In this document: one piece after another, positions 904 to 62,758 of the stretch
Layout of the letters: each line of letters starts with the position of its first letter
Numbering within the stretch: position 1 is the first letter of the stretch
Source: Cytophagales bacterium
GTDB taxonomy: Bacteria > Bacteroidota > Bacteroidia > Cytophagales > Microscillaceae
Assembly (NCBI GenBank): GCA_031425615.1
Contig: JANPJR010000030.1
Coordinates: 210,492 to 274,491, forward strand
DNA length: 64,000 nt
Direction: 5' to 3'
Notes under the pieces: generated by a model
Told to the model about the DNA's origin: nothing
The model's database searches: none
What the model saw: the letters and a program-made list of their open reading frames with translations, nothing else
Translations under genes and position numbers: made by a program

Positions 904-1392
904 CCTCACAACCTATACAAGTTTATCTTTTGCTAAAAATGCACAATCCTATTTCCCTGTAAATAGGCTAATTTTTTAGTGAAAAAATGCTATAAAAATT
1001 AGTTTTTAGAGAAGCACAGGTGGCGGTTCCTTTCTACTTTTTAGTTTTTTACCTAAATAGATACAAATTTGTTATAATGTTATAAATAACCTTATTTTAG
1101 TTTTATATCGTGCAAACCTTTAAGGATTTTAAACCCTTGAAGGTTTGACGCTAAGATTATTTTTTCAAAAAAATACAAATACAAAAATAAACTATAAATT
1201 TAGTTATTTTTAATCGATATAAATTTATTTTAATAACAATAGAACTTAAAAACCCACAACATATAGAAAATTATGCCTTTTGGCATTAGAGGGCTACATA
1301 TGCACAAAAAATGTATTTTTTTGTTTAAAATCCAAAATTTTTTTTGTTATTTTTGCAAAAAAAACAAATAATTTAAAATTCTTTTTAAAAAT

Positions 1393-3609: not shown

Positions 3610-3828
3610 TCATAAAAATCATGTAAATCCTACTGAAAAAATGCGAAATACTTACTTAATTAAATAATATATGAAATAATACAAAACAAACTTTTTTAAA
3701 TTGGAAAAAAATAGTGTTATTTGTAATCTCAAATTTTATTTGAAATTATACGTAATTATGAAAATTATTGTAGGTTTTTATCATTTTTAACTTTAATTCC
3801 TACAACTTCCCACAAATCGGTCTTAAAA

Positions 3829-47643: not shown

Positions 47644-49017
47644 TTAGTTTTTCACTCCCAACTTTCCAAGTGCTTTATCCAAATCTACTTTGGCAATAAT
47701 AGCATTGTACATAGCAGTAAAATACGCATTTTCTGCTTGTTTGAAAGTGTTTTCTGCATCAATAATATCAATATTTGTACCTGTGCCACCTCTAAATTTT
47801 GCTTGTGCAATGCGTGAAACTTCTTGTGCAAGTTCCATATTTTTCTTTTGAATATCCAAATCTTTTAGGCTATTATCAATATTATATTTGGCTTGTTCTA
47901 CTTGAAAATCTACGCTTTTCTTGAATATTTTTACATCTTCTTCCACCTTTGCCAAATCAATGCGTGATTTTTGGAGTGTTGCACTTCTTCTGCCACCATC
48001 ATACAAAGGAATATTAAGCGAAAGACCATAAAACGCATACGCAAAGTATTTTTGGCTAAATTTTGGTAAATCTGAAAACTGGTTTGAACCTGTATTTGCC
48101 CCATACGAAAAATTACCCCTAAGACTTGGATAATACAACGATTTGTTGTAGCGAATCGTCATTAATTGTGCTTCTTTGTTTGCTTGCAACAAGGCATATT
48201 CAGCACGTTGGGTAGCATCAACTTCTATATTTTGTATATTTTCTATACCCAAATTTACAGTACGAATATCCCCTTGCAAAATCAAAGAATCCATCACAGG
48301 CATTCCCATCTGGTATTTTAACAACTTTTTTGAAAAATCTTGCAACGCCAATATTTGTAATTTTTGGGTTTTCAAATTATTCAAAGTTACTTCCAAACGC
48401 AACAAATCAATCCTTTCTGCAAGTCCATTTTTTTGTAATTCTTGGGTATATTTAAACAATGTATCCACACGATAAACATTCGCTTCTATCAGTTTAAGCC
48501 TTTCATCATTTATCAAAACCGCATAAAAACCTTTGGTTACTTTTTCTGCAATATCTATTTTATTTTGGGCAATCACTTTTACAGAAAGGTCTTTGTACAC
48601 ACGTGCAGCTTTTAAGCCAATCAAATACGAGAAATCAAAAATTAATTGTTCCACATTGATAGACGCATTTGCGGTATATTTTGCCCCAAAAGCAAGTGCC
48701 AAAGGATTAGGTGAATTATTAAGTGGTGGTGTATTTCCTGGAAGAAGCGTTTTTTGAATTACGATATTATCCGTATAACCCGCCCTTGCATTAATTTGGG
48801 GCAACCCTGTTGCCAATGTTTGTTTGATGGTTTCTTCTGCGGAAAGTATATCCAAATTGTTTTTTTTCAATACTTCTGAATGTTGTATCGCATATTTGAT
48901 GCAATTCTCCAAATCATAACTTTCTATGCCTTGTGTATTGTCAATTTGTGCAAAAACAGAATTTTTTTGGACAAACAAAGCCAAAAAAATCATTAAAATA
49001 AAAAAAGAATGTTTCAT
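47644..49017 (-). CDS. TolC-family outer membrane efflux protein
   Basis: 457 aa with signal peptide and two OEP repeats. Confidence 0.85.
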   Translation of the reverse strand: MKHSFFILMIFLALFVQKNSVFAQIDNTQGIESYDLENCIKYAIQHSEVLKKNNLDILSAEETIKQTLATGLPQINARAGYTDNIVIQKTLLPGNTPPLNNSPNPLALAFGAKYTANASINVEQLIFDFSYLIGLKAARVYKDLSVKVIAQNKIDIAEKVTKGFYAVLINDERLKLIEANVYRVDTLFKYTQELQKNGLAERIDLLRLEVTLNNLKTQKLQILALQDFSKKLLKYQMGMPVMDSLILQGDIRTVNLGIENIQNIEVDATQRAEYALLQANKEAQLMTIRYNKSLYYPSLRGNFSYGANTGSNQFSDLPKFSQKYFAYAFYGLSLNIPLYDGGRRSATLQKSRIDLAKVEEDVKIFKKSVDFQVEQAKYNIDNSLKDLDIQKKNMELAQEVSRIAQAKFRGGTGTNIDIIDAENTFKQAENAYFTAMYNAIIAKVDLDKALGKLGVKN

Positions 49018-49089: not shown

Positions 49090-49719
49090 TTAGGGGATTA
49101 TTTGAGGGTTAATGGCTTGTTTTATAAGTTCATTTCTATATATGTTATATTTTTCAAGTCCTTTTTCTGTGATAAGCCCTCGCAAAAAATGCGCAGTCAT
49201 CGTACTTATAACTTCTTTCATATCAAACATTTGTAAAGGCTCCAATAGTACTGCTACACCTTCAAAAGACGCAATACGCAAAGTCGCAATAATTTCCATA
49301 TTAAATTCTGTATGATACAAGCCCTCTGATACGCCTCTGTTTAAGTTTTGTAAAATCGCATTTTTTACAAATTGTTGGTGGTGTGCATGATGCAATTCCC
49401 ACACCTCAGGGTGATATTTGCGAAGGTCATGAATAAAACATGGATTTATTTGGCGAATTTCTTGTATTTTTAATTGCGTAATTTTTAATACTTCTTCAAC
49501 TGCATCTTTTGAAATTTGGTGTATATTTTCTATCATTTTTTTATCAAAATCAATCATATAATTGTGCAGTTTTTGTACCATTGCATTTTTATCTTCAAAA
49601 TATTGGTAAATGGTTTTTTTAGAAATGCCTATGCCCCTTGCAATATCGTCCATGCTCACGCTCCTCGTGCCATATTGCATAAATAAACTTTTGACGTGCA
49701 TCAAAATTTTTTCTTCCAT
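49090..49719 (-). CDS. TetR/AcrR-family transcriptional regulator
   Basis: 209 aa with N-terminal TetR HTH 'SMDDIARGIGISKKTIYQYF'. Lies directly upstream of tolC on the same strand. Confidence 0.85.
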   Translation of the reverse strand: MEEKILMHVKSLFMQYGTRSVSMDDIARGIGISKKTIYQYFEDKNAMVQKLHNYMIDFDKKMIENIHQISKDAVEEVLKITQLKIQEIRQINPCFIHDLRKYHPEVWELHHAHHQQFVKNAILQNLNRGVSEGLYHTEFNMEIIATLRIASFEGVAVLLEPLQMFDMKEVISTMTAHFLRGLITEKGLEKYNIYRNELIKQAINPQIIP

Positions 49720-49763
49720 AATAACGTGTTAGATTTTGTATGTGCAAATATATAGCAAGAAAA

Positions 49764-49799
49764 CTTAGGAAACTATAAAAAAGTTTAAAGTTTCCTAAG
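49764..49799. promoter_or_regulatory. candidate TetR operator (imperfect copy) in tetR-tolC promoter
   Basis: 'cttaggaaactataaaaaagtttaaagtttcctaag' has 11-bp perfect arms and lies 45-80 bp upstream of the tetR start. Confidence 0.5.
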
Positions 49800-50068
49800 T
49801 TTTTTAGATTTTTTTAGTTGTAATGGATAAATTTATGATTTTTTTTATAATTTATATGATTTTTTCCATATTATGACAAAAATTTGTTATATTTTCAAAA
49901 AATCCATACAAATTGATTTTTAATGTTTTACAAAAAACTATGCAAAAATTCTTATATTTGCGAGGTTTTTTTTATTTTCTTAATTTTTTTAACCTTCCTA
50001 AAACTACCTTTTTATAATTTTAAAGCTGTTAATTCCCCTTTGAGGGTTAGGAAGCTAATTCTACTTTT

Positions 50069-51220
50069 ATGTTATCATCACTCAATTATATAGTTTGGAC
50101 AATCACGCCCGAAATGATAAGCGGTTGGAGTTTCCCACGTTGGTACGGATTATTATTTGCGTCAGGGTTTATTTTTGGGCAAATCATCATGGCACGTATA
50201 TTTTCGCAAGAAAAAAAACCTGCACAAGATTTGGATACATTGCTTATATACATGGTTGTAAGCACTGTGCTTGGGGCAAGGCTTGGGCATTGTTTGTTTT
50301 ATCAACCCGAATATTATTTGGCAAATCCTATTGAAATCCTCAAAATTTGGGAAGGCGGTTTGGCAAGTCATGGAGCAGCAATAGGCATTTTGTTGGCACT
50401 TTATTTATACAGTAGAAACCGTGAAGGGCAAAGTTTCCTTTGGGTATTAGATAGGATTGTGATTGTAGTGGCACTTGCAGGGGCAATGATTAGGTTTGGA
50501 AATTTGGCGAATTCTGAAATTATTGGCAAACCAACCAATGAAAGTTATGCGTTTATTTTTCAAAATGCTTTGCGTGAAGAACTTATACGCAATAATAACG
50601 ACATCAAAGGCATACAAATCACACCACAAACCAAACAAGCACTTGTAGAAAATCCAAATAATAAATCATATAAATTTGTACTTGTAAAACTTACCATTTT
50701 ATTTGATAGAAATAGCAGAAACGAAGAAAATTTGGCTTTTGTAAAAGGAAGTCTGCCCATACTTATACAAAAAGATGCAGAAATTAAAAAACATTTTGCC
50801 ATCAAAGAACAATTTGTAAATAATACCGAAAACACACCCAAAACAGGCGAACAAGGCAAATATAGCACCATAGAAACCGAAATATTAGCCATTCCACGAC
50901 ACCCAGCCCAACTATACGAAGCATTATCGTGTTTACTCCTGTTTGGATTTTTATTTTTTCTGCACCAATCTATGCGTGAAAAAACACCAGAAGGCATTTT
51001 GGCAAGTATTTTTCTGATTGTGTTGTTTGTGTTGAGATTTTTGTATGAATTTTTGAAAGAAAATCAAGTTGCTTTTGAAGATAATCTCTCCCTTAATATG
51101 GGTCAATGGCTTAGTATTCCTGCTATTTTGATGGGTATTGCAATTGGTGTGCTTGCGTTGATGAGAAAAAATAGCCCCCAAGCCCCCAAAGGAGGAGCAA
51201 GTTCCCAAGAAGGAATTTAG
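50069..51220 (+). CDS. lgt: prolipoprotein diacylglyceryl transferase (with ~110-aa insertion)
   Basis: 383 aa with Lgt signature 'WEGGLASHGAAIG' and 'HPAQLYEALS'. A long hydrophilic insert lies between them. Confidence 0.78.
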   Translation: MLSSLNYIVWTITPEMISGWSFPRWYGLLFASGFIFGQIIMARIFSQEKKPAQDLDTLLIYMVVSTVLGARLGHCLFYQPEYYLANPIEILKIWEGGLASHGAAIGILLALYLYSRNREGQSFLWVLDRIVIVVALAGAMIRFGNLANSEIIGKPTNESYAFIFQNALREELIRNNNDIKGIQITPQTKQALVENPNNKSYKFVLVKLTILFDRNSRNEENLAFVKGSLPILIQKDAEIKKHFAIKEQFVNNTENTPKTGEQGKYSTIETEILAIPRHPAQLYEALSCLLLFGFLFFLHQSMREKTPEGILASIFLIVLFVLRFLYEFLKENQVAFEDNLSLNMGQWLSIPAILMGIAIGVLALMRKNSPQAPKGGASSQEGI

Positions 51221-51272
51221 CGTTTTTTGAATTTTAAACTTTTGAACCTTAAACCCTTTGAACTTTAAACCT
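51221..51272. repeat. GTTCAAAGG-family repeat (reverse orientation) between lgt and rlmD
   Basis: 'ttttgaattttaaacttttgaaccttaaaccctttgaactttaaacc'. Confidence 0.7.
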
Positions 51273-51277
51273 TTTTC

Positions 51278-52765
51278 ATGTCCAAAAAAAAACGCATAAT
51301 TTTAGAAAATATAACCGTATTGAGCCTTGTCTCAGAAGGAAAAGCCATCGCAAAACATGACGAAATGGTTATTTTTTTGGAAGGCTCACAAGTTGCACCC
51401 CAAGATATTGTTACAATTGAAATCCACAAAAAGAAAAAAACCTACGCAGAAGCACGCGTATTGGCTGTTACTACGCCTTCGCCTCTGCGTATTACGCCTG
51501 TGTGTGAGCATTTTGGCGTGTGTGGCGGTTGCAAATGGCAACATTTACCTTATTCTTTGCAATTAGAAGCAAAATACAAACAAGTAAAAGACAATTTGGA
51601 ACGCCTTGCAAAAGTTCCTTTGCCTGAAATTCCTGCTATTTTACCTTCTGAAAATACTTTTTTTTATAGGAATAAACTTGAATTTACTTTTTCTAATAAA
51701 AAATGGCTTGAAAAAGCTGATTTAGATAAAAAATTAGCAGAAAGAGCAGAAAATACCCCAGAAAAAGCACTTGAAAACCCTGAAAATACCACTGAAAACC
51801 CTACAAATGATATTGATATGTCGGATTGGGCGTTAGGTTTCCACGTTTCTGGTCGTTTTGATAAGGTTTTGGATTTGGAAAAATGTCATTTGCAAATGAA
51901 TCCTTCCAACGAAATTCGCAATGCTTTGAAAGAAAAAGCCCTGCAAGAAGGTTGGGAATTTTATGATTTGCGTGGAAAAAAAGGCTTTTTGCGTAATATT
52001 ATCATGCGTATTGCTTCTGAAACCGAAATTATGGTTGCGGTGGTTTTTGGTGAAAATAATCCAAATAAAATAACGGTTGTTATGCAGTTTTTGCACCAAA
52101 AATTCCCTCAAATATCGTCTTTGCAGTATTTTATCAATGAAAAACTCAATGACAGCGTATCTGACCTTACACCTTTTCACTATGCAGGAAAGCCTTATTT
52201 AGAGGAGAAAATGGAAGATTTGACGTTTAGGGTTGGGGCGAAGTCATTTTATCAAACCAATTCCGCACAAGCATATACACTTTATAGCGTTGCCAGAGAT
52301 TTCGCAGGGCTCACAGGCGAGGAATTTGTGTATGATTTGTACACAGGCACAGGCACAATCGCCAATTTTGTGGCAAAAAAAGCAAAAAAAGTAATTGGTA
52401 TTGAATATGTAGAAGAAGCTATACAAGATGCAAAAATAAATTCAGAAATTAACCAAATTCACAATACATTATTTTTTGCAGGTGATATGAAAAACGTTTT
52501 AACCAAAGATTTTTTGGAAAAACATGGCAAACCTGATGTTATTATTACTGACCCGCCACGTGCTGGCATGCACGAAGACGTGATAAAAGTGATATTGGAA
52601 GCCCAACCCACCAAAATCGTATATGTGAGTTGTAATCCTGCTACACAAGCGCGCGATATTGCCCTCCTCTACCCTGATTATACCGTTGCCAAAGTGCAAC
52701 CTGTAGATATGTTTCCGCAAACACACCACGTAGAAAATGTGATTTTGATGGTGAAAGCAAGTTGA
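51278..52765 (+). CDS. rlmD: 23S rRNA (uracil-C5)-methyltransferase RlmD/RumA family
   Basis: 495 aa with TRAM domain, Cys cluster 'CEHFGVCGGC', SAM MTase motifs 'DLYTGTGT','DPPRAG' and catalytic 'VSCNP'. Has an unusual ~50-aa acidic insert. Confidence 0.85.
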   Translation: MSKKKRIILENITVLSLVSEGKAIAKHDEMVIFLEGSQVAPQDIVTIEIHKKKKTYAEARVLAVTTPSPLRITPVCEHFGVCGGCKWQHLPYSLQLEAKYKQVKDNLERLAKVPLPEIPAILPSENTFFYRNKLEFTFSNKKWLEKADLDKKLAERAENTPEKALENPENTTENPTNDIDMSDWALGFHVSGRFDKVLDLEKCHLQMNPSNEIRNALKEKALQEGWEFYDLRGKKGFLRNIIMRIASETEIMVAVVFGENNPNKITVVMQFLHQKFPQISSLQYFINEKLNDSVSDLTPFHYAGKPYLEEKMEDLTFRVGAKSFYQTNSAQAYTLYSVARDFAGLTGEEFVYDLYTGTGTIANFVAKKAKKVIGIEYVEEAIQDAKINSEINQIHNTLFFAGDMKNVLTKDFLEKHGKPDVIITDPPRAGMHEDVIKVILEAQPTKIVYVSCNPATQARDIALLYPDYTVAKVQPVDMFPQTHHVENVILMVKAS

Positions 52766-52814
52766 AATATTGGTAGTAAGTGATTTTACTTGATAATAAT
52801 TTTGGGGCAACGCT

Positions 52815-52860
52815 ATTTTTTCCATAGCAAAGGTTTGCAAACCCTTTGCTATGAAAAAAT
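52815..52860. other. stable hairpin between rlmD and the minus-strand island (terminator-like, atypical T-run placement)
   Basis: 'catagcaaaggtttg/caaaccctttgctatg' ~14-bp stem. The T-run precedes rather than follows it on both strands. Confidence 0.4.
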
Positions 52861-52910
52861 ACCATAATGGTAAAATCATGTAACGACTTTTTTTAAGCGA
52901 AAAGTTTGTT

Positions 52911-54110
52911 TTATTGAATAGGAATATCAAAAATTTTTGTTAAGTCAAAATTAATATCGCTTTTTTTTGTAATGTTAAAGATTTGTTGAGGTGTATTATT
53001 TGGATAACCTAAATCACTTAAATTAAGACGTAAAAAATTACAAACTTTGTTAACATGAATTTTCAAAGATTCAAGAATTGCATTGTTGTTTGTATCATAA
53101 CTATCCGAAAAAATAGATTGAATTACCAAATTTGTGGATTTGTTTACTTTTTCTTCTTCATCTTCGTTTAGATAGGTAAAACTATGTCCTGAATGCAACC
53201 AAAAATAATTTGTAAAGATATTTCTGTCATGGATTTTCAATTTTTCTCGTATTTCCGTATACCTATTTGTGGGCTCTACGTTAATCAAATACAACTTTAT
53301 AGAAAATTTGAAATTTTCATTTTTAATTTCTTCAACAAAAAAATTGTAAATTTCAGAGGGTAAATTTGGATTTCTCGTATATTTTTCTTCATACCCAACA
53401 AAAACTACAAGTTTAAATCCCTTATCTAATTTTTCATTATGTAAAATATTTTTCAACATTGGGATAGTATTTTTTTTTATTACATATTCATAATCCTTTT
53501 TGCCTTCAAAATTTCCACCAAAAAAATAATTATCAATTATAACCATTTCGTTACAAAAATGCTTATAATCTCTTAAACTCTCCCAATCTTCAAAAGCATT
53601 ATGTTTTGGCATAATTGGGTCTATATTGAATAACATACTTTTAAACCAAAAACCAGTATGTTGAAAATCTAATAACATATTATCAACATTGATAAATAAA
53701 ATACCATGTTTTTTTGTTAAATTTTGGCATTCTTCATTTGATTTTTCCAACAAAAAAAAAGAAAATGATGTTACTTGTTTGGGTAGTGGTAAAGTTTCAT
53801 CAAAATCTCCAATCCGTTTGCCAATATCCTGAGTTATTTTTTTGGATATTTGATTCAATTCATAATTGCTTTTTTCATTTTCTTCATCAAATTTTTTTTT
53901 GTCAGATAAAATGTAAATTCTCTTTGTTCCAAATGACTGAAAAAAAGTCGCAACTTGCATTTTATGTTTTGTGTCAGCAAAATTATTTGATTGTGTTTCA
54001 CTCAATAAACTTTCAAGAATTATGTCATTTAAAGTTTCCCTGCCAAGAAGTTTTTTTAACTTTTTCAAACTTTCTATGTCAGAAAAAATAGTTATTCTGT
54101 TTTGCATCAT
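52911..54110 (-). CDS. hypothetical protein, partner of upstream AAA ATPase (candidate effector)
   Basis: 399 aa starting 9 bp after the ATPase stop on the same strand. No recognisable family. Has Asn/Lys-rich composition atypical of the housekeeping genes. Confidence 0.55.
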   Translation of the reverse strand: MMQNRITIFSDIESLKKLKKLLGRETLNDIILESLLSETQSNNFADTKHKMQVATFFQSFGTKRIYILSDKKKFDEENEKSNYELNQISKKITQDIGKRIGDFDETLPLPKQVTSFSFFLLEKSNEECQNLTKKHGILFINVDNMLLDFQHTGFWFKSMLFNIDPIMPKHNAFEDWESLRDYKHFCNEMVIIDNYFFGGNFEGKKDYEYVIKKNTIPMLKNILHNEKLDKGFKLVVFVGYEEKYTRNPNLPSEIYNFFVEEIKNENFKFSIKLYLINVEPTNRYTEIREKLKIHDRNIFTNYFWLHSGHSFTYLNEDEEEKVNKSTNLVIQSIFSDSYDTNNNAILESLKIHVNKVCNFLRLNLSDLGYPNNTPQQIFNITKKSDINFDLTKIFDIPIQ

Positions 54111-54119
54111 GTAGTATTT

Positions 54120-56033
54120 TTATAAGTTAGAAATATCAAGTGCTATACTATCCGCTTCATCAAAAAAGCCTGCTCCAAAACGATTATCTAAATATCCATC
54201 TTCTTCTATGCGTATGCGTTCTACTTGTTTGCGACCTTTTGGCACTTCGTCAGGATTATACAGATAATAAATATTGACATCTTCGGGCAAAATCTCCTCC
54301 TTAGCAACCCAATACTGCAACTTACGGATAAGGTACTCGCTATGCGTTTCTACCACAAACTGCACATTGAAAACTTTGCACGCATCTATTAGCATATCTG
54401 CCAATTTAGATTGTAGTTTTGGGTGTAGGTTGGTTTCAGGTTCTTCTATGCAGATGGTAAACCTGTTGCCTCCATCTATTGGGACTTTTACATAATTGAG
54501 ATGATTTTCTTCAAATGTACGTGTTTTTTCGTGTATATTGTATTTTGTTTTTAGTTCTTCGCCTGCATAATATATTAGGTCAGGCATTGTTGCAACTTTT
54601 AATATTAAAGGCAATACTTGTGTAATTCCATAACCCAAATCCACCAAATCTATTTTTTTGCCATTTTTTACAAGAAACACCTCACTTGCTACACCTTTAA
54701 TCTCGTTAATCTCAAAACCATCTGCAATACCAAATTCTTTTAACCAAGTATTTACGAAATCAGTATCTATTTTTTTCTTGTTTAGTAATACATCATGTAA
54801 AAATTCATTAAAAGATGTGCCTTGTGATTGATAGGTGTAAATACGCTGAGAATTGGCTCGCACTCCTTCTATAAATTGAATACCATTTTGCATATATGAT
54901 AATTCACCAAAATTTATTATTTTTGAAAAAAAATCAAAAAATGTTTTACAAGTGTTCGCAAAATCTTTATTGATAATTTGATTTAATTTCAGTTTTCCAC
55001 ATTTTTCTATAATGGATTGAAATTTAGCATAATCTCCTTGAAATAAATAACGTGCAGGGAAATATTCGCGCTCTTCTGGAAATGATAAATTTTCGTCAGA
55101 TTCCATTTCTATTCGCTTTAAAAATTCTTCTTCTGTTTCATGTATAAGATTAACAAAAACGGGGAATTTAATTGATTTATTTTTAGTAGCATATTTAGGA
55201 AAATAAGGTTCGCCAAAAAGAAAGGAAAAAGCCAGATTACTCTCCAAATTATATTGAAGAATACTTTGACGATTTTCCAGATATGGTAATGTTGTTTGAA
55301 ATGGACTATTTATTTGTTTTAAAATATTTCCCTTTAAAATTTCATAAAATTCTGATTTATGAGGATTTTCTCCTATAATTTTGTCTAATTTATCAATATC
55401 CAAAATTTCAGTATTGAAAAATTTGTCCTCAAATAATATTTTTTGTAATGATATTTGAGAATGACATTTTATTCGAGTAGCATTTTCTTGTATCTTTGAA
55501 ATACCTTTTCCTTTTTCGCTCCATGACAAAAGCACTTCATTTTTATCGTTTTTAATATTTATATTTACAATTCTATCTTTCAACCATGAAAAAGAAACTT
55601 TATACGTTTTTATCTCGCTCTCTTTACTATCTCCCAGCAAATTAGAATACAAATCGTTTTTATCCAAAAATTTAAAATCCAATGTACTACATTGCTCATA
55701 ATCATTTTCTTCAATATTATAATTTCCTCCTTGCTCCCAAGTCCATAAAACAGATATTCCAAATTCAAAACTTATTTCTTTTTTATCTTCGTTTGCTTTG
55801 TTATTAACTACATTTTCAAAATCTCCCAGATTATGATTTCCCAAAGAAAAATCAAGCCCTCCAAAAAAATTACCTTTTTTCGCATTTTCGCTTAATAAAT
55901 TCAACGCTTTAAACACACTACTTTTCCCTGAGCTATTCGCCCCTGTCAAAATGGTAATAGGTGCGAATTCAAAGGTGGTTTTTTGTTCAAAAACTCTAAA
56001 ATTTTCTAAACTAAATTGTGTAAGACGAGGCAT
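54120..56033 (-). CDS. OLD/ABC-type AAA ATPase (AAA_15/AAA_21-like) with short C-terminal tail
   Basis: 637 aa. N-terminal 'NFRVFEQKTTFEFAPITILTGANSSGKSSVFKAL' (Walker A). ~490-aa insertion, then Walker B 'TICIEEPETNLHP' and H-loop 'VVETHSEY'. ~60-aa tail resembling DUF3696-type tails. Confidence 0.8.
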   Translation of the reverse strand: MPRLTQFSLENFRVFEQKTTFEFAPITILTGANSSGKSSVFKALNLLSENAKKGNFFGGLDFSLGNHNLGDFENVVNNKANEDKKEISFEFGISVLWTWEQGGNYNIEENDYEQCSTLDFKFLDKNDLYSNLLGDSKESEIKTYKVSFSWLKDRIVNINIKNDKNEVLLSWSEKGKGISKIQENATRIKCHSQISLQKILFEDKFFNTEILDIDKLDKIIGENPHKSEFYEILKGNILKQINSPFQTTLPYLENRQSILQYNLESNLAFSFLFGEPYFPKYATKNKSIKFPVFVNLIHETEEEFLKRIEMESDENLSFPEEREYFPARYLFQGDYAKFQSIIEKCGKLKLNQIINKDFANTCKTFFDFFSKIINFGELSYMQNGIQFIEGVRANSQRIYTYQSQGTSFNEFLHDVLLNKKKIDTDFVNTWLKEFGIADGFEINEIKGVASEVFLVKNGKKIDLVDLGYGITQVLPLILKVATMPDLIYYAGEELKTKYNIHEKTRTFEENHLNYVKVPIDGGNRFTICIEEPETNLHPKLQSKLADMLIDACKVFNVQFVVETHSEYLIRKLQYWVAKEEILPEDVNIYYLYNPDEVPKGRKQVERIRIEEDGYLDNRFGAGFFDEADSIALDISNL

Positions 56034-56199
56034 ATAGGGTAATTAGGAATAGGGGAGTAAAAAAGCCACCCAGCCCACAAAGGGGAGTTTTTGGGTGGAA
56101 ATGGAAAATTATTTTATAAGGTTTATTTTTTCTCAAATATCCATAATTATTTACAGATATTCAAGTTTTTTTTGTATTTGCTCTTTGGGGCTTGGGCTT

Positions 56200-57057
56200 T
56201 TAAATCATATCATTTGCTTGTCTTTGTGGGTGAATATGTGCATTATTTTGCGTGATATAAGGCACAAGGTTTGGGTACAGCGTGTGTAATTCGGTATATT
56301 CAGGGGTATTTTCGCGGTATTCGCAGGGTTGCGATTGTACAGTATTTTTGAGGCGAATAAGCACACGCAAGGTAGCAGAGGGTAAATTTTGGGAGGTAAT
56401 AGTAGTTGCCATACCAAACAATCTTTCTACTTTCTCCCCAAAAACATCCAAATAATTACCAATATGTAGCAATATTTGGTAATGAAATTCTTTTGAGCGG
56501 TTTAGACTGTACATATTAATAGCGAGCAAACTATTGCCAAATGCTTTTGCTTCGCCATAATGTGTGTGTCCGCCTTGTCCTTCTATTTTTACATTGCCAT
56601 CAGCGTGTAATATGAATATATTTTTAAGAATACTATTTTGGGTGCTTGCCAAAAAAAACATTTCATAATGTCCAGCGATACTTTTGAATATGCCCTCGTG
56701 ATTGTGCATGATTGGGTACATTTCGCCATTTTCGTTAGGTATTCGCACATATTTTTTTGTATCATAATCATATTCATAATGATTTTTTCTTAGTTCTGTA
56801 TTGATGTGTTCCAAAAAACCGCTTACCGTTTCTTCGCTTGGTGGGTTATCATCTTTTTTCATTTTGGAAATTGTAGAAGCGTTATACTTATTGTTTGTAA
56901 GTTCTTTATTCTGTTTTTCTAATGCTTTCCAAATTTCAAGGGCTTTTCGCACTTGTGCGAGGAGGGCGTTGTGTGTTGTGGTCATGTTGAAGTTTGTTTT
57001 TAAAGATTTTTTTGCAAAATAATGTTTTTCTTCGTTTTCTCGTACAAGGCTTACCAA
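56200..57057 (-). CDS. hypothetical protein (weak metallophosphoesterase-like motifs)
   Basis: 285 aa with 'IMHNHEGIF' and 'GGHTHYGE' in the order expected for phosphoesterase motifs III/VI, but no GDxHG/GDxxDR. Assignment weak and start uncertain. Confidence 0.4.
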   Translation of the reverse strand: MVSLVRENEEKHYFAKKSLKTNFNMTTTHNALLAQVRKALEIWKALEKQNKELTNNKYNASTISKMKKDDNPPSEETVSGFLEHINTELRKNHYEYDYDTKKYVRIPNENGEMYPIMHNHEGIFKSIAGHYEMFFLASTQNSILKNIFILHADGNVKIEGQGGHTHYGEAKAFGNSLLAINMYSLNRSKEFHYQILLHIGNYLDVFGEKVERLFGMATTITSQNLPSATLRVLIRLKNTVQSQPCEYRENTPEYTELHTLYPNLVPYITQNNAHIHPQRQANDMI

Positions 57058-57085
57058 ATTTTTAAATTTGGCAAATCAAGTCTAA

Positions 57086-57433
57086 TTAATATCCCATTCC
57101 GTCCATCAAACTGTCAAAATCACCATCAAAGTCGTCATAATCGCCATATTGTCCATCAGTTAAGGCATTGAAAGTATCACGGTCATAATCATGATTACGA
57201 TAATTATCATCATCTTCATCAAGGTAATTACTCCATTTTTCGGTTTGTTGTGTGATACCTTCCGCAGAAATTACATTTTTTAGATGTTCAAATACTTCAT
57301 CTTCCAAGCAAAAATGGTCAAGATTGCACAAACACCAATCTATATATGAGGTGTCTATTTGTGAAACTTCTTGCAAAGATTTTCCTTCATATTTCCCAAA
57401 AGTAAATTCTGTATTTTCGTTATAAATTTTCAT
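57086..57433 (-). CDS. DUF3820-like small acidic protein (hypothetical)
   Basis: 115 aa with 'FTFGKYEGKSLQEVSQIDTSYIDWCLCN' resembling the FGKYKG...DP.Y..W family, followed by a D/Y/G-rich acidic tail. Confidence 0.45.
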   Translation of the reverse strand: MKIYNENTEFTFGKYEGKSLQEVSQIDTSYIDWCLCNLDHFCLEDEVFEHLKNVISAEGITQQTEKWSNYLDEDDDNYRNHDYDRDTFNALTDGQYGDYDDFDGDFDSLMDGMGY

Positions 57434-57748
57434 ATTTTTATGTGTTTAGTGTGTTTTAAAGATTTTTTGGTTAGTTTTCCTTTAAATTATATTGCAAAGT
57501 TCAACTTTATGTTTTGGAAATAAAAAGACAAGCAGACTTATAAATTTCTTTCCAATTTCCAAGAAATTTCCTAATTTTTTTGACACAAAAAAGCCTCCTA
57601 ACCCACAAAGGAATAAACTGCCTTTGACTGTAAAAACGAAAATACTTTTTGGTACTTAATCCATTTTATACTGATAAATGTTAATTTAGCATCAAAATAA
57701 CCGTTATTTTAGGATTTTAAAGGCATTTTAAAATTATTTTTAAAAAAA

Positions 57749-57783
57749 CTTAGGAAACTATAAACTTTTTTATAGTTTCCTAA
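57749..57783. promoter_or_regulatory. candidate TetR operator (perfect 16-bp inverted repeat) upstream of MFP-RND operon
   Basis: 'cttaggaaactataaa ctt tttatagtttcctaag' has the same arms as the tetR-proximal copy and lies ~110 bp upstream of the MFP start. Confidence 0.5.
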
Positions 57784-57853
57784 GTTTTCTTGTTATATAT
57801 TTGCAACTCAAAAAATTAGGAAAAAACCGTTTTATTTTTATTTTATTATTTTT

Positions 57854-57888
57854 CATTCCTAATTTCTAATTCTTAATCCCTAATCCCA
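57854..57888. repeat. heptamer-periodic repeat (TTCCTAA type) abutting MFP start
   Basis: 'cattcctaatttctaattcttaatccctaatccca'. Confidence 0.8.
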
Positions 57889-57894
57889 TAAAAT

Positions 57895-58962
57895 ATGCTT
57901 AAAGTCTGGAAAATCATTAGAATACCATTATTTTTAATTGCTTTTGTGGCTGTAATTGCTTTTACGCTCACAAACAATAAAGAAAAAGCCAAAGAAACCG
58001 CAAAAATTGCGGAAAAAACGGTAGATACTTATCCTGTTTCTGTTGCAAGTGCTGGTTTTGAAAATTTTGAGGGAAATTTTAACCTTACAGGTAATCTTGA
58101 GCCTTTTCGTGAGTTGAATTTTGCCTCAGAAGTTGCAGGCAGGGTAACTGCTGTTTATTTTGAAAAAGGTTCTTTTGTAGGCGAAGGAAGCGTATTGGTA
58201 AGGCTTGATGACGAATCTATCCAAAGAGAATTAAAAATCGCCAATATCACATTAGAAAAAAGACAAAAAGATTTTCAACGTGTAGAAAACCTCGCAAAAT
58301 CAAGCGTTGGAACAATGGCACAATATGATGACGCAAAATATGCCCTACAAACCGCAGAACAACAAGTAGAAACACTTAAAGAACGCCTTGCTAAAACTGT
58401 CATAAAAGCCCCTATCACTGGCATAATCTCACGCAAAGCAATAGAAAAAGGCTCTTACCTCGCCCCAAATGTGCCTATCGCAGATATTACTGATGTATCT
58501 CGTATGAAAATGATTATAAAGGTATCTGAAAGTGAGCTTATGAAAATACAACAAGGACAATCTGTAAAAATAAAAATGGACGCATATCCCGATTTGGATT
58601 TCACTGGTGTTGTTACCAATCTCGCTGTAAAAGCTGACAACTCAAAACGTTATGAAGTAGAACTACAAATATCAGGTAATGGCAATGCTTCGCTCAGAGG
58701 TGGGCTTTTTGGCATCGTGTATTTCCAATTTGCAAAAAGTGGTAGTGCTCTAATGATTCCACGCAGGGCTATCGTAGGCAGTATCCAAGATGCACAAGTA
58801 TTTGTGGTGGAAAATGGTATCGCCTTTGTACGTAAAGTAAAAGTAGGTACTATCAAAAATGATAAAATTGAAGTAATTGAAGGTTTAAAAGAAAATGAAA
58901 AAGTGGTAACCACAGGACAAATAAACTTGCAGGATAAATCTAAGATTACAGAAATAAAATAA
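57895..58962 (+). CDS. RND efflux periplasmic adaptor (MFP/HlyD family)
   Basis: 355 aa with N-terminal TM, biotinyl-lipoyl-like and beta-barrel domains ('VLVRLDDESIQREL'). Confidence 0.85.
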   Translation: MLKVWKIIRIPLFLIAFVAVIAFTLTNNKEKAKETAKIAEKTVDTYPVSVASAGFENFEGNFNLTGNLEPFRELNFASEVAGRVTAVYFEKGSFVGEGSVLVRLDDESIQRELKIANITLEKRQKDFQRVENLAKSSVGTMAQYDDAKYALQTAEQQVETLKERLAKTVIKAPITGIISRKAIEKGSYLAPNVPIADITDVSRMKMIIKVSESELMKIQQGQSVKIKMDAYPDLDFTGVVTNLAVKADNSKRYEVELQISGNGNASLRGGLFGIVYFQFAKSGSALMIPRRAIVGSIQDAQVFVVENGIAFVRKVKVGTIKNDKIEVIEGLKENEKVVTTGQINLQDKSKITEIK

Positions 58963-59152
58963 TGATTAATGGTTAATTATTAATGGTTAATTATTAATGA
59001 TTAATGGTTAATTATTAATGATTAAAACAAAAAATAAAATTAATTAACCATTAATGGTCAATCATTCACAATTAATTAATACATTTTCAATCAATTAATC
59101 TCAATTAATCTCAATCAATACACAACCAACTAATCATTAATCATTAAAAAAT
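58963..59152. repeat. TAAT-palindrome-rich left flank of four-helix-bundle gene
   Basis: Tandem 7-bp-periodic 'tgattaa tggttaa ttattaa' units with palindromes 'ccattaatgg', 'attaat', 'ttaattaa'. Confidence 0.8.
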
Positions 59153-59509
59153 ATGGCAAATATTATTAATGAAAAAAGTTTTGCATTTGCAGTAAGATAT
59201 GTAAAAATGGCACAACATCTACAAGACACCAAGAAAGAATTTATCATGAGCAAACAATTACTGCGTTGTGGTACATCAGTAGGAGCAAATGTAAGAGAAG
59301 CCCAATATGGAGAAAGTAAAAAAGATTTTATTCATAAATTAGCCATTGCCCAAAAAGAATGTAATGAAAGTTTATATTGGGTAGAATTATTATATGCTAC
59401 TTCTTACTTGACCGAAAAAGAATATCAGTCTATACAAATGGATTTAGAAGAACTTTTAAAAATCCTTACAAGCATTATTGTTACTACAAAAAAAACAATT
59501 AATGATTAA
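59153..59509 (+). CDS. four-helix-bundle protein (TIGR02436 / '23S rRNA intervening-sequence protein' family)
   Basis: 118 aa with 'SFAFAVRYVKMAQ...LLRCGTSVGANVREAQYGESKKDFIHKLAIAQKECNESLYWVELL', a characteristic family signature. Inserted between the MFP and RND genes. Confidence 0.8.
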   Translation: MANIINEKSFAFAVRYVKMAQHLQDTKKEFIMSKQLLRCGTSVGANVREAQYGESKKDFIHKLAIAQKECNESLYWVELLYATSYLTEKEYQSIQMDLEELLKILTSIIVTTKKTIND

Positions 59510-59599
59510 TGGTTAATGATTAAATAAAAAAAGCACAAAATAGAATTAATAAAACACTCACAATTAATAATTAATAATTAATAATTAATCATTAAAAAT
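59510..59599. repeat. TAAT-palindrome-rich right flank of four-helix-bundle gene
   Basis: 'ttaatggttaatgattaa ... aattaataattaataattaataattaatcattaaaaat' immediately before the RND start. Confidence 0.8.
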
Positions 59600-62500
59600 A
59601 TGACACTTACCGAATTAGCAGTAAAACGACCAAGTTTGATAGTCGTTATATTCTCTGTACTTACATTTTTGGGCGTATTTAGTTACATGACCTTAGGTTA
59701 TGAACTTATGCCCAAGTTCTCATTACCCATTGTTACCATTACTACTGCATATCCTGGTGCCTCACCAAAGGAAGTAGAAACATCTGTAAGCAAAAAGATA
59801 GAAGATGCAGTTGCAGTCATGGAAGGCATTTCCACAATCCGCTCCATATCACAAGAAAGTTTCTCAACTGTAATCATAGAGTTCAATGCAGGAACAAAAA
59901 TTGATGATGCTGTGCTTGATGCCCAAAGAAAATTAAACGCAGTTATCTCTACCCTGCCAACAGATGCCAAAACACCAAGCGTAAGCAAAATATCTTTTTC
60001 AGAAGCCCCTATTATTCGTATGGGTGTAGCAGGTAAAGTATCACCTACCGAACTATTTGATGTGGTAAAACAACGTATCGTACCCGCTCTTACCAAAATA
60101 AATGGCGTAGGTGCAGTAGATTTGGTTGGTGGTGAAGAAAGAGAAATCAGAATTAATGTAAATAAAAAGAAATTGGAGGCTTACAATATCTCTATTCTCC
60201 AAGTTTCGCAAGCTATCCAAAAATCTAATCTGGATTTTCCAACAGGTAAAATCAAAACCCAAGATAATCAAAATCTAATCCGTCTTGCAGGAAAATTTAA
60301 AAGCATAAAAGAATTAGAAACCGTTATCATAGCAACTGACCGCGCAGGTTCACCTATTTATCTCTCGCAAGTAGCAGAAGTACAAGATGCCCAAAAAGAA
60401 ATAGAGAAAATAACACACGTAGATGGCAACAATTCCATAGGCTTGATGATAAGAAAACAATCTGATGCTAATGCAGTAGAAGTAAAAAAACAGGTAATGA
60501 AAGAGTTAGCCAGCCTTGAAAAAATGTATGCCAAGCAACAAATAAAGTTTTCCATAGCACAAGACACTACAGAATTTACCATGAAAGCTGCAGAAGCGGT
60601 AATGGAAGATTTATTGTTGGCAGTGCTATTGGTAGCAAGCGTAATGTTATTGTTTTTGCATAGCTGGCGAAATGCGTTGATAGTAATGGTAGCCATTCCT
60701 GCCTCTATTGTTTCCACATTTATAGCCATGTTTGTATTAGGCTTTACCTTAAACTTAATGACCCTCCTTGCACTTTCATTAGTGGTAGGTATATTGGTAG
60801 ATGATAGCATCGTAGTATTGGAAAATATACACCGACATCTGGAAATGGGCAAAGACCCTCAAACAGCTGCCTTAGATGGTAGGCAAGAGATAGGATTTTC
60901 TGCCATGTCTATTACACTTGTGGACGTAGTGGTATTCTTACCAATTGCACTTGTAAGCGGACTAATCTCTAATATCCTTAGACAATTTTCGCTTGTAGTT
61001 GTAGTATCTACATTGATGAGTTTATTTGTGTCATTTACTGTAACACCTTTGTTAGCCTCACGTTTTTCAAAAGCAGAACACCTAAATCCTAAAACATTCT
61101 TTGGTGCATTTATTATATGGTTTGAAAAACAATTAGATTACCTCACTGCCTCTTATATAAGCCTGCTTAAAGTATCATTGCGTTACAAATTATTAACTTT
61201 GATGGTAGCTTTCGGTTTGTTTTTTAGCTCTTTTTTATTAGGAACGTATGGTTTTATAGGGTCAGAGTTTGTAACTACAGGAGATAGAGGGGAATTTATT
61301 ATAAATGTTGAGCTTCCAAAAGACGCAACCGTAGAACAAACAAATAGAATTAGCCAAAAAGCAGAAAAATTGCTGTTTGAAAATAAATATGTTACAGGTA
61401 TATTTACCACAGTAGGGGCAACTTCTGAACTTATTGGCGGACAAGCAACTGTATTTAAGGCTGAATTAAACGTAAAGCTGGTTGAACGTGCAGAACGCCC
61501 CTATCCTTCAGGCATAATGGCTACCCTTATTCGCAATGAAATTGCTGAAAAAATAGCAGGTGCCAAAATCACAACTTCAGAGGTAAGTTTTACAGGACAA
61601 GCCAACAACGCACCTTTACAATTTGTGCTTGCAGGAAATAATAATGACACTTTATTCAAATATGCCCAAATCCTAAGAGATAAAATCAGCAAGATTCCAG
61701 GCACAGTCAATATAAAACTTTCTGCAGAGAATGGTAACCCAGAAATATCTGTCCAAATTGACAAAAAACGTATGTCTGATTTAGGATTAAGCATGGACGC
61801 AGTAGGTGCTACTATGCAAAATGCTTTTAGTGGCAACGATAAATCAGAATTTGAAGATGGTGATTATAATTATGACATCAATATTAAATTAGATGACTTT
61901 GACCGAAAAAACATTGATGATGTTGCTTCACTTATTTTTGTTAATAATCAAGGACAAAACATCAAGTTAAGTCAATTTTCCCAAATAAATCAAACCACAG
62001 GAGCCTCCAAACTTGAACGCAGGGGGCGTATGTCTTCCGTAGTGATAGAAGGACAAGTATTAGGGCGTACCGTAGGAGATGTAGGGGGCGATATTGATAA
62101 AATAATTGCAAGTACAAAACTCCCTACCGACATTACTGTAAGCAAAGATGGCGACCTCAAACGTCAAGGCGAGGCATTTGGAAGTTTAGGCTTTGCGTTA
62201 TTAGCCTCTATCCTATTCATGTATTTGATTATGGTGGCATTATACGACAGTTACATATATCCATTTGTCGTATTGTTCTCCATACCTGTTGCTATCATGG
62301 GTGCATTGTTGGCACTTGCCCTTACCATGAGTTCATTGAGCATATTCTCTATGTTGGGTATGATAATGCTCGTGGGATTGGTGGCAAAAAATGCAATTCT
62401 CTTAGTGGATTTTGCAAATCAGATGAAACAAGAAAGAGGAATGAATACATACGATGCCTTAATAGAGGCTGGACATACCCGACTCCGCCCTATTTTGATG

Positions 62501-62758
62501 ACAACCATAGCTATGGTACTTGGTATGCTCCCTATTGCACTTGCAAAGGGGGCTGGTGCAGAGTGGAAGAACGGTCTTGCTTGGGCATTGATAGGTGGAT
62601 TAAGCAGTTCTATGCTCTTAACATTGGTAGTTGTGCCTGTAATGTATAGTTTGGCAGATAGCATGATTGCATTTGTAAATAAAATAATGGGTGTAACCAC
62701 AAAAGAAATAAATACAACCACACCAGAAAAAAAAGAGGAAGCTATCGCTTTACATTAG
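59600..62758 (+). CDS. RND multidrug efflux permease (AcrB/HAE1 family)
   Basis: 1052 aa with 12 TM helices and two large periplasmic loops, starting 'MTLTELAVKRPSLIVVIF'. Confidence 0.9.
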   Translation: MTLTELAVKRPSLIVVIFSVLTFLGVFSYMTLGYELMPKFSLPIVTITTAYPGASPKEVETSVSKKIEDAVAVMEGISTIRSISQESFSTVIIEFNAGTKIDDAVLDAQRKLNAVISTLPTDAKTPSVSKISFSEAPIIRMGVAGKVSPTELFDVVKQRIVPALTKINGVGAVDLVGGEEREIRINVNKKKLEAYNISILQVSQAIQKSNLDFPTGKIKTQDNQNLIRLAGKFKSIKELETVIIATDRAGSPIYLSQVAEVQDAQKEIEKITHVDGNNSIGLMIRKQSDANAVEVKKQVMKELASLEKMYAKQQIKFSIAQDTTEFTMKAAEAVMEDLLLAVLLVASVMLLFLHSWRNALIVMVAIPASIVSTFIAMFVLGFTLNLMTLLALSLVVGILVDDSIVVLENIHRHLEMGKDPQTAALDGRQEIGFSAMSITLVDVVVFLPIALVSGLISNILRQFSLVVVVSTLMSLFVSFTVTPLLASRFSKAEHLNPKTFFGAFIIWFEKQLDYLTASYISLLKVSLRYKLLTLMVAFGLFFSSFLLGTYGFIGSEFVTTGDRGEFIINVELPKDATVEQTNRISQKAEKLLFENKYVTGIFTTVGATSELIGGQATVFKAELNVKLVERAERPYPSGIMATLIRNEIAEKIAGAKITTSEVSFTGQANNAPLQFVLAGNNNDTLFKYAQILRDKISKIPGTVNIKLSAENGNPEISVQIDKKRMSDLGLSMDAVGATMQNAFSGNDKSEFEDGDYNYDINIKLDDFDRKNIDDVASLIFVNNQGQNIKLSQFSQINQTTGASKLERRGRMSSVVIEGQVLGRTVGDVGGDIDKIIASTKLPTDITVSKDGDLKRQGEAFGSLGFALLASILFMYLIMVALYDSYIYPFVVLFSIPVAIMGALLALALTMSSLSIFSMLGMIMLVGLVAKNAILLVDFANQMKQERGMNTYDALIEAGHTRLRPILMTTIAMVLGMLPIALAKGAGAEWKNGLAWALIGGLSSSMLLTLVVVPVMYSLADSMIAFVNKIMGVTTKEINTTTPEKKEEAIALH

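Follow-up and report, generated by a model that had tools for sequence, protein, structure and literature searches.

How does a bacterium keep an outer-membrane channel and an inner-membrane pump under common control when their genes lie in separate operons? The question is raised by a 64,000-nucleotide stretch of contig JANPJR010000030.1 of a Cytophagales bacterium (assembly GCA_031425615.1; the whole stretch is hereafter the window, in whose coordinates positions are given), where a gene for a TetR-family regulator and a tolC-like gene form one operon and genes for a periplasmic adaptor (membrane fusion protein, MFP) and a resistance-nodulation-division (RND) permease form another about 8 kb away. 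An initial annotation of the stretch had drawn attention to an inverted repeat upstream of both operons. Here we report that the two palindromes are very likely operators of the TetR protein encoded at 49090-49719, which is predicted from the sequence to co-regulate tetR-tolC and MFP-RND. They are the following:

49764-49799, no strand: predicted operator copy O1, CTTAGGAAACTATAAA-aaag-TTTAAAGTTTCCTAAG, two 16-nt arms, mismatched at one position, around a 4-nt spacer.
57749-57784, no strand: predicted operator copy O2, CTTAGGAAACTATAAA-cttt-TTTATAGTTTCCTAAG, a perfect 16+4+16 palindrome.

Both sites have the form CTTAGGAAACT-N14-AGTTTCCTAAG, with no further occurrence in the window, and their arms can be extended to 20 nt in O1 (49760-49803) and to 23 nt in O2 (57742-57791). 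The coordinates first assigned to them hold for O1 and for the start of O2; O2 ends at 57784 instead of 57783, and its spacer, initially read as the three letters 'ctt', is actually the 4-nt 'cttt'. The distances to the genes stand as annotated, O1 lying 45-80 nt upstream of the tetR ATG (49719) and O2 111 nt upstream of the MFP ATG (57895). The repeat had also been said to be restricted to these two promoter regions, and a search of the window agrees: the 16-mer with at most one mismatch is found in just the four palindrome arms, and at up to three mismatches the observed count was reached in 0 of 100 shuffles. The core GGAAACT-N14-AGTTTCC, allowing two mismatches, occurs at two places, both of them the palindromes, where 0.25 are expected. 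On these counts a chance origin of the pair is excluded.

The 16-bp inverted repeat is shared by both promoters, as had been noted, and it is part of a larger shared element. Positions 49734-49805 (as the reverse complement) and 57743-57814 form a 72-nt inverted repeat of 92% identity with 7.9 kb between the copies, and its 63-nt core agrees at 61 of 63 positions between the window copies and at 59-60 of 63 with the copies of relatives. This promoter-operator module is composed of AAAAAA, the palindrome and the tail TTTTCTTGYTATATATTTGCA, which includes a −7 box:

49743-49805, minus strand: 63-nt module facing tetR, AAAAAA + palindrome + TTTTCTTGCTATATATTTGCA.
57743-57805, plus strand: 63-nt module facing MFP-RND.
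49745-49752, minus strand: predicted sigma-A −7 box TATATTTG for tetR-tolC; transcription would start near 49740, with a 5′ untranslated region of about 21 nt.
57796-57803, plus strand: predicted −7 box TATATTTG for MFP-RND; transcription would start near 57808, with a 5′ untranslated region of about 87 nt.

The −7 box of Bacteroidota sigma-A promoters has the consensus TAnnTTTG at positions −12 to −5 (PMC9723704), to which TATATTTG is a perfect fit, and the distance from the end of the palindrome to the box is 11 nt at both the tetR and the MFP promoter. With the transcription starts that we infer from these boxes, the palindromes would cover about −59 to −24, including the −33 region. Both lie in divergent intergenic regions (tetR/lgt and ExoX-C-like/MFP), a position between divergently transcribed genes that excludes a role as terminator. 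The lgt gene has an apparent −7 box TATATTTG of its own at 49953-49960 (plus strand), about 154 nt beyond the palindrome, and is therefore probably outside TetR control.

The module has been kept at both operons in close relatives. The window TetR has three of these, at 87, 79 and 74% identity (the next stands at 44%), and the 79% relative belongs to the Cytophagales metagenome-assembled genome (MAG) JAAFIN01, where tetR-tolC (locus L002) sits between recQ and a penicillin-binding protein gene. MFP and RND of the same MAG (L018), 85% and 91% identical to those of the window, are encoded on a different contig among unrelated neighbours. No flank synteny was found between the window and JAAFIN01, and the 8-kb proximity of the two operons therefore has no weight as evidence. 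Both operons of JAAFIN01 nevertheless have the 63-nt module in front of them, as do tetR of the 87% relative (L003) and MFP at a further locus (L110), whose RND is 89% identical. All pairs of modules among the two window copies, L002, L018 and L003 are 94-100% identical, while the adjoining 60-nt flanks are 50-69% identical, with similarity ending sharply at the module edges, and the fourfold-degenerate sites of four genes agree at 54-56% between the window and JAAFIN01. Because flanks and degenerate sites have drifted so far around a nearly unchanged module, the comparison indicates that both copies are under purifying selection rather than being a recent neutral duplication. JAAFIN01, the closest representative genome, contains exactly two sites, one per efflux operon (L018, L068).

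Beyond this clade, we scanned 185,579 species-representative genomes with the pattern TTAGGAAACT-N{12,16}-AGTTTCCTAA, which requires exact 10-nt half-sites. The scan returned 98 loci, 77 with N14 spacing and 21 with other spacings. At 52 of the 77 N14 loci a tetR homologue (21-79% identity) reads away from the site, mostly beginning 18-63 nt downstream; among the others, this was the case at one of 21, and these N12, N13, N15 and N16 matches (Erwinia, Klebsiella, Thiomargarita, Bacillus, Oscillospiraceae) were set aside as unrelated repeats or chance. Most N14 tetR loci belong to Bacteroidota of many orders, with tetR as the first gene of a co-directional tetR-tolC-MFP-RND operon. The −7 box begins 0-5 nt past the site in Flavobacteriaceae, and at the few loci in Opitutaceae and Clostridia a TTGACA −35 or a TACAAT/TACGAT −10 element abuts it. 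The TetRs adjoining the sites have an invariant helix-turn-helix (HTH), MDDxAxxxGxSKKTxY. As a control, we chose four TetR homologues solely for their protein similarity (37-40% identity); all of them head tetR-tolC-MFP-RND operons, and GGAAACT-N14-AGTTTCC abuts a −7 box in three of the four, the last keeping one half-site. We take GGAAACT-N14-AGTTTCC as the core because these protein-picked loci carry it. Its central 14 nt are A/T-rich and weakly conserved, and in many genomes they are non-palindromic while the half-sites stay, which argues for protein recognition of two half-sites over a nucleic-acid stem. The suggestion that a single TetR links the tetR-tolC and MFP-RND operons thus gains support both from conservation at the two loci and from the 52 tetR-adjacent N14 sites.

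Under this model, TetR would bind both operators, and a palindrome lying across the −33 region would block RNA polymerase at both promoters. The tetR promoter would drive tetR-tolC, making the system autoregulatory, and the second promoter would drive MFP, a gene for a four-helix-bundle protein, and RND. Binding of a ligand, probably a substrate of the pump, would take TetR off the DNA, so that the outer-membrane channel and the inner-membrane pump would be expressed at the same time. Between the centres of the core half-sites GGAAACT and AGTTTCC there are 21 bp, or about two helical turns. A single TetR dimer reaches only about half that distance, and each operator is therefore likely to take two dimers. 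Long operators bound by two dimers are known for QacR-IR1 of Staphylococcus aureus, Bacillus FadR and Streptomyces CprB (PMC5397183, PMC4150764). The window system is like these in being a putative TetR repressor of an export system (the QacR type), in having a promoter-overlapping operator that far exceeds the 15 bp of tetO, and in an operator geometry that implies two dimers, a stoichiometry that we infer for the window from this geometry. It differs from them in that protein identity is below 21%, structural similarity is generic and the operator sequence is unrelated, with half-sites that flank a weakly conserved, A/T-rich 14-bp spacer.

Several points weigh against assigning the sites to TetR. 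Half-site conservation in the genome scan arises partly by construction, exact half-sites having been required, and the unbiased control is a sample of four loci. No clear −33 TTTG element was seen inside the module, and the promoter call is made from the −7 box by itself. In 13 genomes these half-sites, equally spaced, stand at the promoter of a gene for a TonB-dependent receptor, and no tetR lies within 8 kb, so that an adjacent TetR may not read the motif in every case; likewise, no tetR was seen near any of the three sites of the Cytophagales MAG CANGYA01. One could therefore suppose that a different regulator, global or trans-encoded, recognises the palindrome and that tetR is merely a frequent neighbour. 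We regard this as improbable. The sites directly upstream of a tetR homologue, 52 of 77, span three phyla, the TetRs beside them share an invariant recognition helix, and homologues picked without regard to their DNA carry the core motif. Sites remote from tetR are, moreover, expected when the same TetR acts in trans, as the window illustrates.

A second alternative, which we consider quite improbable, is that TetR does bind the site, as an activator or dual regulator rather than as a simple repressor. A few TetR-family proteins activate transcription, and the operator would be centred near −41, a position that class II activators can also use. Elsewhere, however, the site overlaps or abuts −7, −10 or −35 elements (in Flavobacteriaceae, Opitutaceae and Clostridia; at other loci, TAAGTTTG lies within the right half-site), which is typical of steric repression, and efflux-linked, self-adjacent TetRs are classically repressors according to reviews cited in PMC10197871.

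It is very unlikely that the pair is left over, without selection, from a recent duplication or inversion, the second copy having no regulatory role. In favour of such an origin, the copies are inverted and bracket the segment holding lgt, rlmD and an accessory island, and two short-read contigs (L001, L004) break inside the repeat. Against it, both copies are 94-100% conserved in relatives whose synonymous sites stand near 55%, the module edges are sharp, and in JAAFIN01 the two loci are on separate contigs and have unrelated genes beside them. The six genes enclosed by the repeats yielded no recombinase domain (two of them gave no domain match at all), and with both promoters facing outward an inversion would change nothing. 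An inverton was rejected on the same grounds: although its 72-nt inverted repeats are present, flipping the segment would leave the driven genes unchanged.

Least probable of all is that the palindrome is a dispersed element of the repetitive extragenic palindromic (REP) or miniature inverted-repeat transposable element (MITE) kind, a structural hairpin or a terminator, present in these intergenic regions by accident. The two sites are indeed predicted to fold as very stable single-stranded DNA hairpins, at −17.9 kcal/mol (z-score −7.4) and −15.4 kcal/mol (z-score −6.0), and in one MAG (WFXK01) three copies rich in GGAAAC lie away from any tetR (L023, L076, L093). Copy number, however, which the initial annotation had named as the test for a generic REP-like element, is two in the 64 kb and two in the closest genome, the palindromes precede the predicted transcription starts and have divergent genes on either side, they belong to no Rfam family (covariance models run over 49600-59700 gave one chance-level match, E=0.72, distant from both palindromes), and the central 14 nt are non-palindromic in many genomes that retain the half-sites.

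If the two palindromes are operators of one TetR, how did the two operons come to share them? The layout had been read as one efflux system split by lgt, rlmD and the island. This is probably the wrong history, because the MFP and RND of the window are not orthologous to the canonical partners of tetR-tolC. We compared the window proteins with three canonical operons picked by TetR similarity (L103, L104 and L106) and, for MFP and RND, with six canonical operons:

TetR identity: window against L103, L104 and L106, 37-40%; those three among themselves, 37-47%.
TolC identity: window against L103, L104 and L106, 35-47%; those three among themselves, 35-51%.
MFP identity: window against all six canonical operons, 20-27%; canonical operons of different orders among themselves, 32-41%.
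RND identity: window against all six canonical operons, 24-28%; canonical operons of different orders among themselves, 38-56%.

The window RND is also shorter, at 1052 aa against 1138-1168 aa in the canonical operons, and falls in a separate HAE1 clade that is well populated, with 55-71% identity to many homologues. Two of these (L108 and L109; RND 63-65%) are in marR-MFP-RND operons without an OMF (outer-membrane factor) gene or the TetR motif, and a third (L107; RND 71%) is a lone RND gene with TTTGGAAACT-N14-AGTTTCCTTT about 40 nt upstream. The window tetR-tolC, judging from these identities, seems to descend from the widespread Bacteroidota tetR-tolC-MFP-RND operon and to have lost, in this lineage, its linkage to the canonical MFP and RND genes. 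The simplest reading, at somewhat less than even confidence, is that the tetR promoter-operator module was copied onto a pump lineage that is MarR-controlled elsewhere, wiring that pump to the tetR-linked TolC; the direction of change rests on few loci. More tentatively, the 63-nt element could be a portable promoter-operator cassette, and the efflux system a chimeric tripartite pump held together solely by the shared operator. The window MFP-RND operon has no OMF gene beside it, as is also the case in the homologous marR-MFP-RND operons, and physical assembly of the window TolC with the window MFP and RND is suggested by this and by the shared regulation.

The marR-MFP-RND operons (L108 and L109, Cytophagales) hold the closest outside pumps, with RND at 63-65% identity and adaptors of 355 and 366 aa, and differ from the window operon in having an adjacent MarR and another palindrome, whereas the window operon has no marR. 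Their palindrome, TTTTAGTTCT-N8-10-AGAACTAAAA, is presumably the MarR operator. In the segments concerned (L108 5170-5910; L109 4400-5363), it lies upstream of marR and recurs before MFP in L108; in L109 only one half-site (AGAACTAAA) can be seen before MFP.

FJOH_RS06575-06590 of Flavobacterium johnsoniae is a canonical Bacteroidota tetR-tolC-MFP-RND operon (PMC10197871). The canonical loci in our comparison were L007, L020, L040, L063 and L103-L106. They have an orthologous TetR subfamily (HTH SKKTxY) and TolC, and the same operator core in the same place upstream of tetR. In contrast, the window operon ends after tolC, being followed by an oppositely oriented LysM gene, so that the four-gene arrangement is not seen, and the regulated MFP-RND lies elsewhere, belongs to another pump lineage and has its own copy of the module. 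Proteobacterial systems such as AcrR/acrAB, TtgR/ttgABC, SmeT/smeDEF and MtrR/mtrCDE likewise combine an autoregulated TetR, an RND tripartite pump and a promoter-overlapping operator. In those systems the regulator gene is usually transcribed away from one pump operon, while the window tetR is co-directional with tolC, a second operator copy stands at an unlinked MFP-RND operon and the promoters are of the Bacteroidota −33/−7 type. In Escherichia coli, tolC and acrAB are co-regulated via the marboxes of the MarA/SoxS/Rob regulon, and there, too, an unlinked channel gene and a pump operon are under the same cis element. That element is a degenerate, asymmetric box read by AraC-type activators, unlike a repressor palindrome duplicated as a near-identical module.

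This type of regulation is ordinary, and the current understanding of TetR-controlled efflux is not overturned by it. What is new is an apparently undescribed operator motif for a TetR subfamily, together with the rewiring of a regulon by a duplicated 63-nt module. Searches of the literature and the PDB turned up neither an operator nor a ligand published for this subfamily, and no close structure; searches with either 10-mer half-site returned eukaryotic primer or oligonucleotide matches and one unrelated Streptomyces paper, and a search on TetR operators in Flavobacterium and Bacteroidetes found no description of the motif. GGAAACT-N14-AGTTTCC is now a concrete candidate operator for a TetR subfamily of many Bacteroidota orders, rarer in Opitutaceae and Clostridia, and would allow regulon prediction in uncultured Bacteroidota, including efflux components encoded away from their regulator. 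The window itself may be viewed as a clean example of rewiring, in which duplication of a short module would cause an outer-membrane channel and a non-ancestral pump to be expressed together. If the cassette reading is true, related MAGs go further, with copies before tolC, MFP and RND (CANGYA01) or before a lone RND (L107).

The genes of the two operons are as follows:

49090-49719, minus strand: TetR-family regulator, 209 aa, Pfam TetR_N PF00440, HTH SMDDIARGIGISKKTIYQYF.
47644-49017, minus strand: TolC-like OMF, 457 aa, 72 nt 3′ of tetR on the same strand.
57895-58962, plus strand: RND periplasmic adaptor (MFP), 355 aa, TIGR01730 (221.6 bits against a cut-off of 94.9).
59153-59509, plus strand: four-helix-bundle protein, 118 aa, TIGR02436 ('23S rRNA intervening-sequence protein' type), between MFP and RND.
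59600-62758, plus strand: RND (HAE1-type) permease, 1052 aa, NF033617.

All three components of tripartite efflux are recognised in the window by their domains. The TolC-like protein matches Pfam OEP PF02321 (9.3e-43) in two stretches. The permease matches NF033617 over its full length (2.3e-229) with 764 bits, under the strict subfamily cut-off of 1250 bits, and its homologues at 55-89% identity carry PF00873. In the regulator, TetR_N PF00440 covers residues 11-49 (1.8e-11; 44 bits against a cut-off of 24), and the AlphaFold2 model is all-helical, with 11 helices, a pLDDT of 92.4 and a pTM of 0.85. The 50 best PDB matches listed in a fold search are all TetR-family proteins, with TM-scores of at most 0.75 and identities of at most 21%; they are generic TetR folds and so say nothing about the ligand. 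Searching the PDB by sequence gave HTH-level matches alone (best E=5.5e-6), and no close solved or characterised relative.

Between MFP and RND, the TIGR02436 gene is bracketed by TAATGATTAATGG-type and TAATGATTAATGGTTAAT-type A/T-rich repeats in the interval 58961-59599. It is missing from this junction in the relatives L018 and L110, where the gaps are about 255 nt, and, although it lies within the operon span, it is probably an insertion. The distant homologue L109 has a 127-aa 23S_rRNA_IVP gene at the corresponding place, so the junction looks like a site of recurrent insertion or retention of a four-helix-bundle gene.

The segment between the two operons begins with lgt (LGT) and a TRAM/U5-methyltransferase gene; the domain matches of these two and of tetR, tolC, MFP and RND confirm the gene calls of the initial annotation. 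A block of four genes at 52911-57433 (minus strand) lies between rlmD and the MFP promoter and encodes a 399-aa protein of unknown type, a 637-aa ATPase, a 285-aa protein likewise unknown and, at 115 aa, a protein whose C-terminal domain is ExoX-like. The ATPase (AAA_15/AAA_21/DUF3696) has NsnB as its best PADLOC match (8e-48), and the block is probably a defence island. Its adjacency to the pump is not conserved in relatives.

Two Logan short-read contigs with tetR end inside the palindrome (L001 1-30; L004 1-20), and an exact-protein look-up of the window TetR found a single 10-kb Logan contig, which breaks inside the palindrome and thus added no further context. Such ends are expected if a duplicated 63-nt module breaks assemblies, which would call for caution in MAG-based regulon work. 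A clade-specific 30-base pattern gave no match among metagenome contigs.

In 13 Bacteroidota MAGs, TTAGGAAACT-N14-AGTTTCCTAA stands before a gene for a TonB-dependent receptor of about 787 aa with CarbopepD_reg_2 and Plug domains (L009, L013, L014, L029, L032, L038, L059, L066, L075, L081, L084, L087 and L090). The receptor gene starts 18-31 nt past the site in 12 of the 13 and 123 nt past it in L090; in L029, for example, the site is at 1318-1351 and the gene at 1371-3731. In about half of these loci (e.g., L009, L029, L038) a −7 box (TAAGTTTG) shares positions with the right half-site, and a short-chain dehydrogenase/reductase gene diverges from the site at three. These loci may be remote regulon members of the same TetR subfamily. 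If so, they hint that the signal of this subfamily is not 'drugs' but a specific physiological compound that the cell both takes up and exports.

CANGYA01 has its three sites (L005 2460-2493, L079 5361-5394, L092 6182-6215) at separate loci, upstream of an MFP, an RND and a TolC-like gene, with the common left flank 'tcctttgcg'. Its MFP and RND are 36% and 50% identical to those of the window, and the RND is preceded by an 81-aa open reading frame. The three copies in WFXK01, GGAAACTTAGGAAACTTT..GTTTCC.AAGTTTCCTAA (L023 857-890, L076 2822-2855, L093 213-246), have neither tetR nor an efflux gene nearby and are probably an unrelated genome-specific repeat. In a Lentimicrobiaceae MAG (L025, 2420-2453), the site overlaps the start of TolC homology, and the gene order is tolC-tetR.

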